A stretch of 13,264 bases of DNA from the IMG/VR virus record IMGVR_UViG_2802429244_000009; one strand, given 5' to 3'. This DNA is from a virus (Duplodnaviria > Heunggongvirae > Uroviricota > Caudoviricetes). Numbering within the stretch: position 1 is the stretch's first letter; each line of letters opens with the position of its first letter. Below the pieces are notes generated by a model, which searched no databases, was not told the origin of the DNA, and saw only the letters and a program-made list of their open reading frames with translations. Positions 2,628 to 13,231 of the stretch are shown here, piece by piece. Made by a program: the position numbers and the translations under genes.

Positions 2628-3275
2628 TTATAGGTTGAACTGTACACCTTTTGCTACGGCAACAATTTTACACTCTGGCGTAAGCAAGGATGATTGATAG
2701 CGCGGATTGAGAGGGCTTAAATACACAAGTTTTCCATCAATAACTAATTTTTTTATAGTCATAGACGGTTCATTTGTAAGAGGATCTGGAACTATTACAG
2801 CGACGATACTGCCATTTTTATAACTTTCTCCTGGTCTTAGGATCACAGTGGCACCAACTGGGATACTTGGCGACCCTGAGGGGTTATGCATAGTGTCATC
2901 AGGCATTGAAACGGCAAAATCACCTTCCACTACATCAAAGAATGTGGTGATCCTATCGACATTTCCCATTGTTTTCTCTCCTTCTAAGATTAGGAAAGAA
3001 ATCGCGTCACCCCACGAAAAGTAGGGGATCTTGGTGCCTGGATTGCTCTGCACAAAAGATAGTTCAGGAGACGATACTCCATACAGGAGATAGGACTCAG
3101 TAGTTCCTAATGCTTGGGCTAACTTACTTAGAGCTTTGCTGCCGGGTTCGTTTAGATCTTTCTCCCAGTACCCTATAGTAACCCCAGTCACGCCTGAAAG
3201 CTTACCCAGTTCTACTTGGGTGAGTCCCTTATCTTTTCTGAGTTTCTTAAGCCTGATGCCAAGGCTTTCCATCAT
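2628..3275 (-). CDS. CI-like prophage repressor: N-terminal HTH, C-terminal LexA/S24 autopeptidase domain
   Basis: N-terminus LTQVELGKLSGVTGVTIGYWE is an XRE-type HTH. C-terminus carries the S24 signature (AVSM...DTM serine region, TIKKL lysine, LSPLNPRY) paralleling lambda CI (GNSM, FKKL, LQPLNPQY). GGAG RBS upstream of the start at 3275. Confidence 0.85.
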   Translation of the reverse strand: MMESLGIRLKKLRKDKGLTQVELGKLSGVTGVTIGYWEKDLNEPGSKALSKLAQALGTTESYLLYGVSSPELSFVQSNPGTKIPYFSWGDAISFLILEGEKTMGNVDRITTFFDVVEGDFAVSMPDDTMHNPSGSPSIPVGATVILRPGESYKNGSIVAVIVPDPLTNEPSMTIKKLVIDGKLVYLSPLNPRYQSSLLTPECKIVAVAKGVQFNL

Positions 3276-4044: not shown

Positions 4045-4992
4045 ATGAGCAGCAAGCTTCATGGTCTTGTCTGGGAAGGGTGCGCCTTCACCGGCATGAT
4101 CTTATCCAGGGTGGCAGTAATGGCTCGCCTTGCAGATTACAGCAATGACGAAGGTGTGTCATGGCCTGCAGTGGAGACCATTCGTCGTCAGATTGGGGCA
4201 AAGAGTGAATCAACGGTTAAAGCTGCGATAGCGGAACTGGAAAAGAACGGCTGGCTGACGAAGGAGGAACGTAAGGTCGGTGGGCGTAATGTAAGCAATA
4301 TCTACCGTCTTAATGTGGAAAAACTAGAAGCAGCAGCAGCGGCGGCGCGTGAGGCATATAAACCGAAAAGAAAAATTAGCCAGGCAAAAAATGACCCGTC
4401 AAATATTGCCCCCTCAACGGTTGACCCCTCAAATTTTGATGGATCAACCATTGATAAAAAACAGCCGGATAGGGGGGCGATGGTTGGCCCCGATCCGTCA
4501 GTATTAAAACCTGATCCGTCAGATAAAAGATCTTTTCGTCCGGAAGCTTCGCAACCGGACTCGCAGACGGCTGAACAGGATTTTTTAACCCGACACCCTG
4601 ACGCGGTTGTGTTCAGTGCGAAAAAACGCCAGTGGGGTAGCCAGGAAGATTTAGCGTGTGCGCAGTGGATCTGGGGACGAATCGTGAGTCTTTACGAGCA
4701 GGCTGCCAGCGATGATGGCGAAATCATGCGACCGAAAGAACCCAACTGGACTGCATGGGCCAATGATGTGCGCACAATGCGGATGCTGGATGGCAGAACT
4801 CACAGACAAATTTGCGAAATGTTTGGTCGGGTACAGCGGGATCCATTCTGGGTAAAAAACGTCATGAGCCCGTCAAAGCTTCGCGAAAAATGGGATGAGC
4901 TGGTTATTCGTCTGGGGCGTTCGCCTGTACAGCGTTGCGTGAATCACATTTCTGAACCGGATACCGAAATTCCGCCGGGCTTCAGGGGGTAA
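4045..4992 (+). CDS. Replication initiation / replisome-organizer protein (O-like; N-terminal winged-helix region, C-terminal DnaT-like region)
   Basis: 315-aa ORF with GGAG RBS, located where the O gene sits in lambdoid genomes. N-terminal region resembles phage replication-protein wHTH domains; low-complexity acidic/Pro linker; C-terminal W/F-rich region (DPFWVKNVMSPSKLREKWDEL). Assignment is by position and motif, not verified. Confidence 0.6.
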   Translation: MSSKLHGLVWEGCAFTGMILSRVAVMARLADYSNDEGVSWPAVETIRRQIGAKSESTVKAAIAELEKNGWLTKEERKVGGRNVSNIYRLNVEKLEAAAAAAREAYKPKRKISQAKNDPSNIAPSTVDPSNFDGSTIDKKQPDRGAMVGPDPSVLKPDPSDKRSFRPEASQPDSQTAEQDFLTRHPDAVVFSAKKRQWGSQEDLACAQWIWGRIVSLYEQAASDDGEIMRPKEPNWTAWANDVRTMRMLDGRTHRQICEMFGRVQRDPFWVKNVMSPSKLREKWDELVIRLGRSPVQRCVNHISEPDTEIPPGFRG

Positions 4993-5032
4993 ATGTTTAT
5001 TTCAGGTCATGAGGTAATTTTCAGGAGGACTT

Positions 5033-5383
5033 GTGGCAAAAGTATTTACACAAGAAGAGCGGGAAAAAATTAAGGGGCTGGTTGTTGAACTCGTGCGCCA
5101 GAGCGGGCGCGAGACGTTACGACAACTGGAAGCTAAGACAGGTGCGACAAGACATTTAATGAGCGTTCTCGCAAGAGAGCTGGTCGCCAGTAGTGATGTA
5201 TACAACTCTGGCTACGGGTTATTTCCCACTGAACAGACTCATAGGGACTGGCAAAACGCCCGCAAAAAACTATCCAGGGCAAAGGTGAAAAAAACAGCTG
5301 TGGTTGATCTGGACCTTATCTGGTCATTACCAGACGGAGGAATACGCCGCTATGACAGGCGTCAGGACATCATTTGCCGCTAG
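5033..5383 (+). CDS. Hypothetical 116-aa protein following the replication gene
   Basis: GTG start at 5033 preceded by AGGAGG (5023-5028); composition similar to flanking phage genes. No recognised domain. Confidence 0.5.
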   Translation: MAKVFTQEEREKIKGLVVELVRQSGRETLRQLEAKTGATRHLMSVLARELVASSDVYNSGYGLFPTEQTHRDWQNARKKLSRAKVKKTAVVDLDLIWSLPDGGIRRYDRRQDIICR

Positions 5384-5592
5384 TGCCGGCAGAGCAAATT
5401 TATGTAGTGTGTGTTGGCGTTTTATCGGGGAAATTTTCACTAGGTTGTGTGGTGATGAAATTAAAGGGCATTGCTTGGATGTGAATAAACGTTTCCGTGA
5501 CACAGGGGGAGCGCTTGTTTGCCTCTTTGTCTTATGCCAGAAAAGAGTAGTTAAAATATGTATTGAAAAGCGATTTCCTACAGCTATCACCC

Positions 5593-5621
5593 TTGTAAGC
5601 CAGAGTTATACAAAATATTAT
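5593..5621 (+). promoter_or_regulatory. Candidate sigma70 promoter for the KAP NTPase gene
   Basis: -35 TTGTAA (5593-5598), 17-nt spacer, -10 TATTAT (5616-5621), about 85 nt upstream of the GTG at 5707, within an AT-rich intergenic region of roughly 320 bp. Confidence 0.4.
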
Positions 5622-5706
5622 CTCTGCAGAAGTCTTACGTTTTCCGGAGCGTGCATAAAGGGAAACTATTACAAGCCCCGAGCTCACTTAAAGGAGATCG
5701 CTAGTT

Positions 5707-7941
5707 GTGGCCAACCAAACCATAAAACGTTTTGGACTGGAAAATATGATACTCGATAAATCAGTGACGCACCCAGATCAGGATCGATATGGATTTCTTC
5801 ATATTGCTAGACAACTTGCAAGTGCCATTCATGCAATTGGACGAGAAGGTAGAGCTGTCATTGGCATTGAAGGTGCATGGGGCTCAGGAAAAACTAGCCT
5901 ATTGAATTTGCTACGTTCGGAGCTAGAAAAAGAGAAAAATGAACGAACTTATATTCTAAATATTTCCCCTTGGCTTGATGGTGATGGTATCAGCTCTGTG
6001 GAAACTTTGTTGCTACCTGTGGCGAGAGTCATTGCAGATGAGGAAGAAAAGTCATTACCGCCGAGGCAACGCAAGCGCCTCAATAAGAAAAACGAACTAA
6101 CTGAATCGGCGAAATCAATCCTGCGTTACTCACAGGTTACAGCACGGCATTTGGTTCCAATGGCGGAATTTGCTGCTCTTATTCCCGGAGTTCCCAATGC
6201 CGGTAAAGCTCTTAAGTCCTTTTCAGAGCTAAACTTAAAGGAAATCAGGAAGACCACCGCGGAATTACGTACTGAAATAGCAGAGAAGATTGCAGATCTT
6301 GATCTCAGTTTTATAGTGCTACTTGATGATCTGGATCGTCTTGAGCCAGCTCAGGCTGTCGAGATCATTCGACTAGTAAAATCGGTCGCAGATTTTCCTC
6401 GTTTCCGCTATATCTTATGTTATGACAGGGGCGTTCTGGCCCAAGCAATTAAAACCGGATTAGGAGTAGAAGATGGAAATGCTTACCTGCAGAAAATAGT
6501 GCAAATATCGTTCAGCCTTCCTCTTCCGGAATCATTTGATCTACGATTACAGTTTTTTGATGGTGCGGTCGCTCTTTACGAATCTGTTAACGGTTTTTCT
6601 CCTGACGAGGAAATATTGACGGACCTGAATACAATTACAGATACCTTTGGTGTCGCGCTTAAGACCCCACGAGAAGTGCAACTGTCTTTGAATGCCCTTG
6701 CTTTCAGGTATCCAGGCGTGAGAGATTACGTTTATCTGCCAGATCTATGCTTTCTTCAACTTATTCAAGTTACCTGCAGTAGTTTATATGAATGGATAGA
6801 ACAGTACCTGACTGAGTATGCAGTGGTAGCATCAGGCGATGGCACAGTCAGTGAGGCGCAACAACAACAAATTAGGGAGCATTTCGTTACTGCTATTTCA
6901 AAGTTACACCCTTTTTCTGACCTTATGATATACGAACTTAGTAAGATTATACCTGGTATTGAAGGGTATAAAGAAGATACGCTGAAACTTTTTCGTCAGA
7001 GCAGTGAAGAAGAGCAGGTCTTCATGGGGGCACAACGAAGACTTGGTAGTAGTGCCTACTGGCGTTACTACTTTGCATTTTCTGCTCCGCAATATGTTTT
7101 GCCGCCGGAGTTTTTTACCAATCTGTTTAACTTAGCCAGAACATTCGATAAAGAAACTGATCTTGCAATTGAGTTGCTCAGCAGAATCAATAGTAAAGGG
7201 CTTACATCACGAACATGGTATGAACATATCCTTAGTCAACTTAGCTCCCGTATGATCAAAGAACGTCATTTTGATGAATGTGCAGGGTTGTTAAAATTTT
7301 TTTTCAATTACGCTGATGGTGTTTGGGATTTCTACTATGAACGGAACCAGTGGTTCTCTTGGCAAACACTAGGTACGGAAGAGGTTGTAAACAATCTGCT
7401 CCGTCGACTACTGGAGTTGGATAGGCCCAGAGGAATGCGTTTGCTAAAACAACTGTTCACTCAGGGAAGCGCCTGGAACTGGGCTGCCGTATATCTGCGG
7501 GGATTGCTGTTGCAGAATGGTATGGCTGGAAGTCAAGCAGTTGCCATGTATAAGCGGATTTTGAAAAATACTGAGGTGGCCTCACTGTGTAAGCTTATGT
7601 CACGTCGCTTGAGAATGCGGCACATTCAAAATGAAATGTTTCGGTTCAACAATCTTCTACATTATGTTTATGCTTGGCGTGACATAGATTCACCAAAAAT
7701 TGTTTGTCGATGTCTACGGCGAATCTGTAAGGAAGATGATGGTTTTTTGAACCTGCTACTGCGTTTACGGAGAGTGGTATTTAGTAGCCACCGTGGGGCA
7801 TATCGAGAACTACGAATAAATCAAGTTTCATTTCTTATTGGACTCCCAAAAGATACTATTGTCTCGCGGCTGGAAAGCCTTGCTCAACAACGTAACAGAG
7901 ACTGGATGGTCGATGAATTACGGAATTCGTTTGAGCAGTAG
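5707..7941 (+). CDS. KAP-family P-loop NTPase (744 aa), candidate prophage-encoded defence / exclusion protein
   Basis: Walker A GAWGSGKTS near residue 57 and Walker B-like FIVLLDDLDRLEP near residue 200, the G-x-W-G-x-G-K-[ST] and hhhhDDLDR pattern typical of KAP NTPases. AAGGAG RBS before the GTG start. Gene is visibly AT-richer than its neighbours. C-terminal ~500 aa unassigned. Confidence 0.75.
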   Translation: MANQTIKRFGLENMILDKSVTHPDQDRYGFLHIARQLASAIHAIGREGRAVIGIEGAWGSGKTSLLNLLRSELEKEKNERTYILNISPWLDGDGISSVETLLLPVARVIADEEEKSLPPRQRKRLNKKNELTESAKSILRYSQVTARHLVPMAEFAALIPGVPNAGKALKSFSELNLKEIRKTTAELRTEIAEKIADLDLSFIVLLDDLDRLEPAQAVEIIRLVKSVADFPRFRYILCYDRGVLAQAIKTGLGVEDGNAYLQKIVQISFSLPLPESFDLRLQFFDGAVALYESVNGFSPDEEILTDLNTITDTFGVALKTPREVQLSLNALAFRYPGVRDYVYLPDLCFLQLIQVTCSSLYEWIEQYLTEYAVVASGDGTVSEAQQQQIREHFVTAISKLHPFSDLMIYELSKIIPGIEGYKEDTLKLFRQSSEEEQVFMGAQRRLGSSAYWRYYFAFSAPQYVLPPEFFTNLFNLARTFDKETDLAIELLSRINSKGLTSRTWYEHILSQLSSRMIKERHFDECAGLLKFFFNYADGVWDFYYERNQWFSWQTLGTEEVVNNLLRRLLELDRPRGMRLLKQLFTQGSAWNWAAVYLRGLLLQNGMAGSQAVAMYKRILKNTEVASLCKLMSRRLRMRHIQNEMFRFNNLLHYVYAWRDIDSPKIVCRCLRRICKEDDGFLNLLLRLRRVVFSSHRGAYRELRINQVSFLIGLPKDTIVSRLESLAQQRNRDWMVDELRNSFEQ

Positions 7942-8279
7942 TCGAAACATTAAAAATTGGTCATGGGGCTTTAATATTGAAAACGAGGGTGTTTCCGATA
8001 GTTTTTTAGCTACTACGCCGCGTTTGGCAGAGAGGGTTAAATAAGAGAGTTGCCTCCATTGGTTGAACTCACAGCTCAAAGTTGATTGTTAGCTTTGATT
8101 GTGTATTGCCTACACAAGTATTAGCCGGATCTGACTTAGCACATTTAATTAAGTGCTGGTGGTGGTATCTGACCATGTTTCACAGAAAAATCAAATTATA
8201 CCCAGTAGTAATATTGAGACACTGTAGAGACAGCCACATATTGAATCATGCACGTGTACGTCAAATGTGGGAGGTTGTC

Positions 8280-8369
8280 GTGCTGGTTCTCAAATGTGCG
8301 CTGGCTATTGCGGCTGTAATGGCAATTTATTGTCTTGCTATTGTTCTTATGGTTCGCCTTTCTGATTGA
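8280..8369 (+). CDS. Candidate small hydrophobic membrane peptide (29 aa; MLVLKCALAIAAVMAIYCLAIVLMVRLSD)
   Basis: GTG at 8280 preceded by GGGAGG (8269-8274) at 5-nt spacing. Product is a single predicted transmembrane helix with a charged C-terminal tail. It is the C-terminal part of track ORF 8082..8369, whose own start is a weak TTG. Confidence 0.3.
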   Translation: MLVLKCALAIAAVMAIYCLAIVLMVRLSD

Positions 8370-8580
8370 TTTCATATTGGCGAGGTAACGGGAGTTAAGT
8401 AGAATGGCTGCGGGTGCTTGAGGCTATCTGTCTCAGGCATGAACACCAACGGCAGATAGAGAAAAGCCCCAGTTAACATTACGCGTCCTGCAAGACGCTT
8501 AACATTAATCTGAGGCCATATCTATGACTTGCACACGTAGGTTAGCCTCTTACGTGCCGAAAGGCAAGGAGAAGCAGGCT

Positions 8581-8736
8581 ATGAAGCAGCAAAAGGCGAT
8601 GTTAATCGCCCTGATCGTCATCTGTTTAACCGTCATAGTGACGGCACTGGTAACGAGGAAAGACCTCTGCGAGGTACGAATCCGAACCGGCCAGACGGAG
8701 GTCGCTGTCTTCACAGCTTACGAACCTGAGGAGTAA
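8581..8736 (+). CDS. hokD: Hok-family type I toxin, HokD (RelF)-like (51 aa)
   Basis: MKQQKAMLIALIVICLTVIVTALVTRKDLCEVRIRTGQTEVAVFTAYEPEE matches recalled HokD/Gef-family sequences. AGGAGAA RBS upstream; a structured GC-rich 3' region follows the stop. Confidence 0.85.
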   Translation: MKQQKAMLIALIVICLTVIVTALVTRKDLCEVRIRTGQTEVAVFTAYEPEE

Positions 8737-8964: not shown

Positions 8965-9213
8965 ATGAGCAAAAAAGAGAAGTTGAGGTGGCGTCTGAAT
9001 CAGCTTCCAAAGGATTTTACATGGGATGAACTCGTGACGTTGCTTGGGCATTATGGTTTCGAAATGCTTACCGGTTCAGGCTCAAGAAGGAAGTTTACCA
9101 ATGCTAATGGAAGGCTTGTGGCTTTTCATTGCCCACATCCTGGCAATATTGTTAAAGGATATGTGCTTAAAGAAGTGAAAAATCTTTTGGATGAGATTGA
9201 TAGTTATGAGTAA
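8965..9213 (+). CDS. hicA: HicA-family toxin (82 aa)
   Basis: Motif ...LLGHYGFEMLTGSGSRRKF....GRLVAFHCPHPGNIVKGYVLKEVKNLL fits the HicA (YcfA-like) pattern G.GS..KF...G....HxPHPG. It is immediately upstream of, and overlapping, a HicB-like gene. Confidence 0.7.
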   Translation: MSKKEKLRWRLNQLPKDFTWDELVTLLGHYGFEMLTGSGSRRKFTNANGRLVAFHCPHPGNIVKGYVLKEVKNLLDEIDSYE

Positions 9214-9682
9214 TGTGCTGAGTTATAAAGGTTATTTTGGCAGCATTGAGGTTTCACTTGAAGATAACATACTTCATGGGAAAATTCAGTGCGTAAACGA
9301 TGTTGTAACCTACGAAGCGGAAACACTGGATGGGTTAAGGGCGGCTTTTGAAGAAGCTGTTACAGATTATCTCGACACATGCAAGCAGTTAGGGAAATCT
9401 CCTGATAAACCAATGAGTGGTACTTTTAACATCAGAATTGGTCGCGATCTTCATAAGAAAGCGTTTTTGGCTGCAATGGCGGATAAGACGACGCTTAATG
9501 ATTATGTGCGTAAAGCTATCGAAGAAAAGATTGCTGACAAAAAAGAAGTTCATTCTCATTCGGAAAGCGAAGAAACGACAGATACATTCGTTTGGGAAAA
9601 AGCATTCTCTTTTGGTTATGTCATTTCCCCTTCAGCAAGAACAAAAAAGAAAGAGGCTGGTGAGCGATGGATGCGTCACTGA
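9206..9682 (+). CDS. hicB: HicB-family antitoxin (158 aa) with C-terminal extension
   Basis: YKGYFGSIEVSLEDNILHGKIQ...DVVTYEAETLDGLRAAFEEAVTDYLDTCKQLGKSPDKPMSGTFNIRIGRDLHKKA matches the HicB-like antitoxin pattern (YKGY.GS...DYL..C...G..P.KP.SG.FN.RI...LH.KA). ATG at 9206 overlaps the hicA stop at 9211-9213. Confidence 0.8.
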   Translation: MSNVLSYKGYFGSIEVSLEDNILHGKIQCVNDVVTYEAETLDGLRAAFEEAVTDYLDTCKQLGKSPDKPMSGTFNIRIGRDLHKKAFLAAMADKTTLNDYVRKAIEEKIADKKEVHSHSESEETTDTFVWEKAFSFGYVISPSARTKKKEAGERWMRH

Positions 9683-10095
9683 TGTTACAAAATATTAAGT
9701 ATGCTGGTTTCGATATTGTTTCCAGTAGTTTCAAGGATAACACTAGTGATGATGGAGGGTTTTTTAAGGTCTCGATCGAGGAAGTTAAATTTTCTTCGGG
9801 GCGCGATGATGATGGTACTTGTTGGTTCCGGATTGGATTTTCGCCATCGATAAAAGGGTATCCCGATAGAGATGGTGCCGGGGATGAAGAACCCTCTTTT
9901 GAGCTAAAGATGGAGCTGATTACGGACTTTGATATCATGAATGGAGAGTTGATCGATGAAAAATTCTTTGTGAAAAATTCATGGTATTTTGAGAATTTCA
10001 TGTCGTTGACGTTAAAATTGGCGGTGGACTCTGTTCTTAAGCACACGTCGTTAAGCGATATTTATTTCCCCTGGTATTCGCCGGACTCAGCTTAA
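9682..10095 (+). CDS. Hypothetical acidic 137-aa protein, translationally coupled to hicB (third gene of the operon)
   Basis: ATG at 9682 overlaps the hicB stop (TGATG); an in-frame ATG at 9667 is an alternative start. AT-rich like hicAB, followed by a terminator. Product is Asp/Glu- and aromatic-rich with no recognised domain. Confidence 0.55.
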   Translation: MLQNIKYAGFDIVSSSFKDNTSDDGGFFKVSIEEVKFSSGRDDDGTCWFRIGFSPSIKGYPDRDGAGDEEPSFELKMELITDFDIMNGELIDEKFFVKNSWYFENFMSLTLKLAVDSVLKHTSLSDIYFPWYSPDSA

Positions 10096-13077: not shown

Positions 13078-13153
<76 letters not shown>

Positions 13154-13156
13154 TAT

Positions 13157-13231
<75 letters not shown>

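Follow-up and report, generated by a model that had tools for sequence, protein, structure and literature searches.

The PifA family has been known since the 1980s, and the F-plasmid protein has long been known to abort infection by phage T7. It gives the KAP nucleoside triphosphatases (NTPases) part of their name, 'Kidins220/ARMS and PifA', and differs from most of them in having no transmembrane helices (PMC13001434, PMC12632615). F PifA is reportedly triggered by T7 gp1.2 and by the capsid protein gp10, and its effect is membrane depolarisation and nucleotide leakage (PMC13001434, PMC8594841, PMC11990801). The host gene fxsA is reported to modulate F exclusion in work from the Molineux laboratory. 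In published surveys PifA is mainly plasmid-borne. Two further defence NTPases invite comparison, RdrA of the RADAR system, which partners the deaminase RdrB, and Tmn, a single-gene P-loop NTPase defence protein with α-helical arms that was called a KAP NTPase by Wu et al. and is placed by a 2026 preprint in a separate YobI family (PMC13001434). Here we analyse a 744-residue protein encoded in a 13,264-nucleotide stretch of Caudoviricetes DNA (IMG/VR record IMGVR_UViG_2802429244_000009; 'the window' is this whole stretch). With a probability of about 0.7 we take it to be an abortive-infection protein of the PifA family that a prophage carries as cargo, a reading built on sequence comparison and on analogy with F PifA. 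By profile and alignment a known defence family gains a member here, and this is not a new type of system.

The assignment to PifA is carried by matches along the whole protein. The PADLOC PifA model PDLC02361 aligns residues 13-743 with profile positions 4-716 of 720 (E 3.6e-281, 933 bits), covering 98% of the protein and scoring about 870 bits above the next-best PADLOC family (65 bits); the same model gives the PifA of an F-type plasmid 963 bits. BLASTP aligns these two proteins collinearly over 694 residues with 44% identity, 64% similarity and only three gaps, and the plasmid copies carry the annotation 'phage T7 exclusion protein'. Judged by profile score, the window protein is a full-length PifA relative and as good a member of the family as the prototype. 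The Pfam KAP_NTPase domain (PF07693) is matched over residues 32-336 at E 4.3e-40 (138.2 bits against a gathering cut-off of 20; profile 3-291 of 293), so that the KAP family membership proposed by an earlier sequence-only reading, made by a model from the letters and open reading frames (ORFs), was recovered by profile search. Like F PifA (741 residues), the protein has a KAP NTPase domain at its N-terminus and a helical region after it, and neither protein shows a transmembrane segment, the best 19-residue Kyte-Doolittle mean being 1.26 in the window protein and 1.27 in F PifA in a simple hydropathy scan (19-residue window, cut-off 1.6) rather than a dedicated predictor. General annotation is less specific: there is no dedicated NCBIfam model, the PHROGs family to which the protein is assigned is one of unknown function, and a 100% identical NCBI protein from Escherichia sp. 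11.1597 is named simply 'NTPase'. The features of the gene and its immediate surroundings are as follows.

5546-8023, + strand: mobile pifA-like cassette, made up of the control region upstream, the gene itself and some 80 bp beyond it, as delimited by blastn
5593-5621, + strand: candidate sigma-70-like promoter, TTGTAA-17-TATTAT, with 9 of 12 consensus matches
5692-5709, + strand: ribosome-binding site AAGGAG and GTG start codon, the Shine-Dalgarno sequence and GTG being identical in all three aligned copies (window, Klebsiella and Citrobacter)
5707-7941, + strand: pifA-like gene, an intact ORF of 744 codons with a GTG start
5800-6714 (residues 32-336), + strand: KAP P-loop NTPase domain, Pfam PF07693
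5872-5898 (residues 56-64), + strand: Walker A motif GAWGSGKTS, read from the sequence
6325-6339 (residues 207-211), + strand: Walker B motif DDLDR, read from the sequence
6724-7938 (residues 340-744), + strand: all-helical, α-solenoid-like C-terminal region, proposed as a sensor or partner-binding domain

The ORF and both Walker motifs are as the sequence-only reading described them, and its ORF end at 7941 stands. The start it gave, 5593, is the first base of the -35 hexamer; the frame at that position contains stop codons ahead of the GTG at 5707, where the ORF begins with AAGGAG placed 8 nt to its 5' side. Among 120 homologues G56, G59, G61, K62, D207, D208 and R211 are invariant, as are 64 further columns beyond the Walker motifs, and conservation spans the whole length of the protein. 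The same reading had remarked that the gene is AT-rich relative to its flanks. At 43.0% guanine plus cytosine (GC) it does lie below the 50-54% of neighbouring genes (O-like 51.4%, ren-like 49.6%, YdfU 53.8%, RusA 50.1%), but the low GC alone does not single it out, because cI (43.4%) and hicAB (40.5%) of the same window are equally AT-rich.

The lack of a transmembrane insert and the long helical C-terminus had led the sequence-only reading to suggest an undescribed variant, with tmn as comparator. This suggestion fails because both traits are hallmarks of PifA, and it gives way to the end-to-end match to the PADLOC PifA model; what survives of that interpretation is a KAP NTPase that is a credible anti-phage candidate. 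An identity as a tmn-like or otherwise new KAP defence protein, embedded in the membrane and separate from PifA, could draw on the KAP domain itself and on weak PADLOC similarities to QatA and to PDC-S20 KAP-type models. However, Tmn has two transmembrane helices inside its P-loop domain where the window protein has none, no Tmn model is matched at E ≤ 1, and the coverage of the PifA model and its lead over the next family leave such an identity very improbable. A Tmn-like membrane NTPase was rejected on the hydropathy scan, the missing Tmn match, and the PifA profile and alignment taken together.

An AlphaFold model built on the 120-sequence alignment (predicted local distance difference score 80, predicted template modelling score 0.60) has an α/β NTPase core with a poorly defined insert at residues 148-179, and after the core it is helical as far as the end. 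The interval between the Walker motifs (residues 100-190) is modelled as a helical, charged insert of low confidence with no hydrophobic segment. In fold the NTPase core comes closest to RdrA, the RADAR ATPase, and to immune NTPases of the STAND/NLR type. Sequence identity to RdrA is only 11-15% with a TM-score of about 0.3, the PADLOC and NCBIfam RdrA matches are insignificant, and the window gene has no partner gene in the manner of RdrB. It is likewise distinct from STAND/NLR-like sensors such as Avs: Pfam places the protein with KAP and not STAND, no N-terminal effector domain is recognisable, and no Avs model is matched. A profile search of Protein Data Bank sequences returned no match, nor was a close fold match found. 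Divergence is distributed unevenly along the protein, with 63% identity to the wider family in the NTPase domain and 35% across residues 501-744, which makes the C-terminal solenoid the fastest-diverging part. This difference from F PifA in the C-terminal third suggests that trigger specificity is probably different.

The gene is part of a mobile cassette together with its promoter-like site. Window positions 5546-8023 (2.5 kb) align with a chromosomal locus of Klebsiella michiganensis (L003) in a single blastn alignment at 86.4% identity, and positions 5553-7934 share 82.3% DNA identity with prophage-end loci of Citrobacter (L007 and L008). Of the shared block, 161 bp lie ahead of the GTG. 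In the window, homology to the backbone of the best-matching sequenced phage, vB_EcoS-689R5, ends at 5445 and returns at 8392. The 368 bp from 8024 to 8391 belong to neither the Klebsiella cassette nor vB_EcoS-689R5 and include a 95-codon ORF with a TTG start (8082-8369) that matches no family. Three-way alignment indicates that both hexamers (-35 and -10), the 17-nt distance between them, the Shine-Dalgarno sequence and the GTG are retained in the two other genomic contexts, the hexamers reading TTGTAA and TAATAT in Klebsiella and TTGTTG and TATTAT in Citrobacter. This conservation within the cassette is the main support for what we treat as a candidate promoter, its function being inferred, and it falls within a 160-bp block that is itself conserved. 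A stand-alone gene with its own promoter, as the sequence-only reading had it, is nevertheless borne out to the extent that the promoter-like site travels with the gene. Short repeats resembling operators upstream of the gene match only at chance level.

The window protein belongs to a close clade (P0002-P0008; 73-88% protein identity) of pifC-less single genes from Klebsiella, Citrobacter, Providencia and Kosakonia, whose cassettes are 82-86% identical in DNA and inserted at other sites. The K. michiganensis copy is a lone chromosomal insertion between GST and epimerase genes, and that of K. aerogenes is accompanied by Mrr, TIR, BrxR and CbtA/CbeA genes in a CP4-like island. Copies in Citrobacter, Providencia and one Logan-assembled contig follow lambda-like tail genes at the tail-distal ends of lambdoid prophages, and the Kosakonia copy adjoins a phage tail-fibre gene, VapBC and type VI secretion system genes. 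Within this clade the window copy is the only one found to occupy the ren/nin slot. More distant homologues, at 50-54% identity, are found in P4-like or integrase/AlpA/primase islands of Salmonella and E. coli, and also in the O/P-to-Q interval of other lambdoid IMG/VR contigs. In one of these viral contigs (L018) the homologue lies on the opposite strand between lambda-P/O-like genes and RusA/Q, and in two others (L019 and L020) it adjoins Rem/YdfU with colicin-pore-domain and GIY-YIG ORFs upstream. Because these three occupy the same interval, placement of PifA-like genes between O and Q is recurrent and not unique to the window. In L019 (IMGVR_UViG_2724678968_000001, 4646-7436) the 54% homologue follows genes for a GIY-YIG protein and for a 440-residue protein whose pore-forming domain is of the colicin type (E 6e-52), and a fragment resembling PifC residues 183-321 is also present; a pore-forming protein beside PifA is of note as PifA has no known membrane effector.

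In contrast to the IncF/IncI plasmid setting of F PifA, the window gene resides in the ren/nin slot of a lambdoid prophage and is not preceded by pifC. In the F-type plasmid a gene for a 362-residue regulator, which we take to be PifC from its position, ends 2 nt ahead of pifA. A tblastn search with this regulator found nothing at E ≤ 10 in the window or in clade loci L003, L007 and L010, and neither tblastx nor blastn detected a pifC remnant in the window's upstream region. The arrangement of the pif operon, with pifC directly upstream of pifA, is thus lacking here, and it is a feature of the F operon, not of the protein family. Partial matches to PifC (within residues 169-362) do occur just upstream of 54% homologues. 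These fragments, 73-133 residues long and 35-56% identical to the F-type regulator, lie immediately 5' of the homologues in Salmonella islands and one viral contig (5793-6011 in L015 and L016, 7499-7867 in L017), and they suggest stepwise loss or truncation of pifC outside plasmids. The upstream DNA of the window is unrelated both to pifC and to the upstream DNA of the 54% homologues. As it resembles neither, and as no PifC match exists in the clade loci, the close clade has, on this comparison, exchanged the control region linked to pifC for one that is different and shorter. The DefenseFinder 'Pif' definition also lists PifC and might not call this locus.

The allele is rare. Megablast of positions 5400-8100 against 5,426 complete E. 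coli genomes gave no match, indicating that it is not in the common E. coli pool, and in the protein collection it is found on two contigs. A tblastn search of 50,697 deposited phage genomes returned two partial matches only, at 21-22% identity, and seven IMG/VR viral contigs carry PifA-like genes. These genes are thus essentially absent from sequenced phage isolates, yet present among IMG/VR contigs. Such rarity, together with the shortness of the fragment (13 kb) and a Rac/Qin-like DicB module typical of cryptic elements, would suit a decaying, non-functional passenger in a cryptic prophage. We regard this as quite unlikely, as the frame is full-length, every family-invariant residue is present, and start codon, Shine-Dalgarno sequence and promoter-like site are conserved.

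The gene content marks the window as the early part of a Rac/Qin-like lambdoid prophage. It opens with DicB, DUF1391, the cI-type repressor, Cro, a YdaT/CII-like gene, the O-like gene and the DUF977/Ren-like gene; the pifA-like gene follows, and after it come sok RNA and Hok, HicA, HicB, a 142-residue protein, YdfU, RusA, Q and two tRNAs. The neighbouring features placed by coordinate are these.

2628-3275, - strand: cI-type repressor (helix-turn-helix and S24 peptidase)
4045-4992: O-like initiator
5033-5383: DUF977/Ren-like protein
8412-8586: sok antitoxin RNA (Rfam RF01794, 109.5 bits)
8524-8736: Hok, a 70-residue ORF with a Hok/Gef domain

This order agrees with the sequence-only reading, which had put the gene in the ren/nin cargo slot between the replication genes and Q: O-like and ren-like genes lie 5' of it, and hok/sok, hicAB, YdfU, RusA and Q lie 3'. 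In vB_EcoS-689R5 the corresponding slot contains about ten small ORFs (Ea22-like or hypothetical) and no helicase loader, so the pifA-like gene occupies a variable cargo slot and does not stand in place of a replication gene. The position is nonetheless that of lambda P or DnaC, and a replication ATPase or helicase loader was the outcome that the sequence-only reading had named as contradicting its proposal. We find this scarcely credible. No Pfam, PHROG or NCBIfam match to DnaC/IstB or lambda P was obtained, matches to ORC/Cdc6 span the generic NTPase core only, at 8-14% identity, and the slot is free of a loader in related phages that share the O-like gene. Moreover the cassette also turns up behind tail genes, within islands and as a lone chromosomal insertion, and contig L018 has its PifA homologue alongside a genuine lambda-P gene. 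The helicase loader or replication ATPase was accordingly rejected as a candidate, on the missing profile match, the small ORFs that otherwise fill the slot, and the occurrence of the cassette away from replication modules.

Just 3' of the pifA cassette lies a complete hok/sok-type locus (8412-8736), the equivalent of which is called 'host killer protein' in a related phage; hok/sok itself has been reported to exclude T4. Further along, HicA toxin (82 residues) and HicB antitoxin (163 residues) are encoded at 8965-9682 by overlapping genes of 40.5% GC that are missing from the closest phage backbone. Together the pifA-like gene, hok/sok and hicAB make up a stretch of cargo of toxin or defence type, with the replication genes on one side and YdfU on the other. 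Directly after hicB, a 142-residue ORF (9667-10095, 40.8% GC) matches phrog_19522 only (unknown function, E 3e-20), with no Pfam or PADLOC match, and may be cargo too. In the early-left region a 212-residue ORF (1417-2055, - strand) matches phrog_2151 (unknown function, E 1e-119) along its entire length and has no Pfam or PADLOC match, and homology to the closest phage backbone is interrupted from 1154 to 2069, a stretch that spans it. Downstream of Q the window carries tRNA-Thr(TGT) and tRNA-Gly(TCC) at 13078-13231, as does vB_EcoS-689R5, whose tRNA-Met is missing or diverged in the window.

A working model for the PifA-family protein in its lysogen can be drawn from these comparisons. Transcription from the cassette-borne promoter would be constitutive and would allow the protein to be made while the early operons of the phage are repressed. 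Soluble or peripherally associated with the membrane, the protein would idle in a nucleotide-bound state until one or more proteins of a sensitive phage were recognised, most likely by the diverged C-terminal α-solenoid. The KAP NTPase domain, with its AAA+/STAND-like fold, would then change conformation or, as RdrA and STAND proteins do, oligomerise; membrane integrity would be lost through depolarisation and nucleotide leakage, and infection would abort before progeny are made. For the window protein we infer all five steps as well as the target phages, and the last two are transferred from the published work on F PifA. Since the presumed sensor region is strongly diverged, both the trigger and the phage range are expected to differ from those of F PifA.

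Several observations weigh against this reading. Identity to F PifA is 44% overall and about 35% in the presumed sensor region, and the trigger need not be T7-like. The sequence-only reading had described a promoter in an AT-rich gap of roughly 320 bp; the gap is real (323 bp from the ren-like stop at 5383 to the GTG, 41.8% GC) and the TTGTAA-17-TATTAT element is present, but its 9/12 match is not above chance, four promoter-like sites being observed in 5300-8500 against 6.3 expected in shuffled sequence. Downstream, no terminator was found by pattern scan, and positions 7925-8085 fold no better than shuffles (z 0.34). The structural model displays no effector domain, whether pore, nuclease or transmembrane segment, and for that reason a host or membrane partner may be needed. 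The range of F PifA is itself very narrow, and a primary function in defence is doubted by some authors (PMC12632615, PMC8594841). Very few phages of the BASEL collection are affected by it, the authors of that study suggest that its main function may lie outside defence, and no functional ectopic pifA construct was obtained by them (PMC8594841).

These last findings raise the alternative of a true PifA homologue whose main role lies in mobile-element biology, for example in element maintenance or in signalling associated with the membrane, and which excludes a few phages as a side effect only. F PifA inhibited only two or three BASEL phages, and the authors doubt an origin in immunity (PMC8594841); in the window the neighbours hok/sok and hicAB are toxin-antitoxin-type modules tied to element maintenance. 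On the other hand the family recurs beside Mrr, TIR, BrxR and an SMC-like ATPase, as well as in a P4-like satellite and in prophage cargo slots, its fold relatives are immune NTPases, and a diverging solenoid joined to a conserved NTPase domain fits a sensor caught in an arms race. We consider the alternative unlikely, and an abortive-infection role of the PifA-family protein remains the preferred reading; the single-gene anti-phage candidate proposed from sequence thus stays credible, as a KAP NTPase that by homology is of the PifA family.

Current defence-annotation models recognise the family, and in most respects standard defence-finder tools would arrive at this result. Its annotation carries a lesson, in that names such as 'NTPase' or 'KAP family P-loop NTPase fold protein' hide a recognisable PifA. 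The points of interest are modest: an autonomous cassette that lacks pifC, the prophage association of its clade, and a diverged solenoid. PifA is among the oldest known abortive-infection proteins and its narrow known target range is puzzling, and a diverged, self-contained allele, with its own candidate promoter and no need of PifC, offers a possible handle on both PifA trigger specificity and membrane damage. We propose tentatively, and at somewhat less than even odds, that there is a pifC-less, prophage-associated clade of PifA whose cassette hops among lambdoid slots, islands and the chromosome and whose solenoid senses triggers other than gp1.2 and gp10. Were this so, PifA would make up a family of modular sensors whose phage range is allele-specific and broader than the narrow one of F. 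The autonomous allele might also be expressible on a plasmid, unlike F pifA, and could thereby help with structure and killing mechanism.

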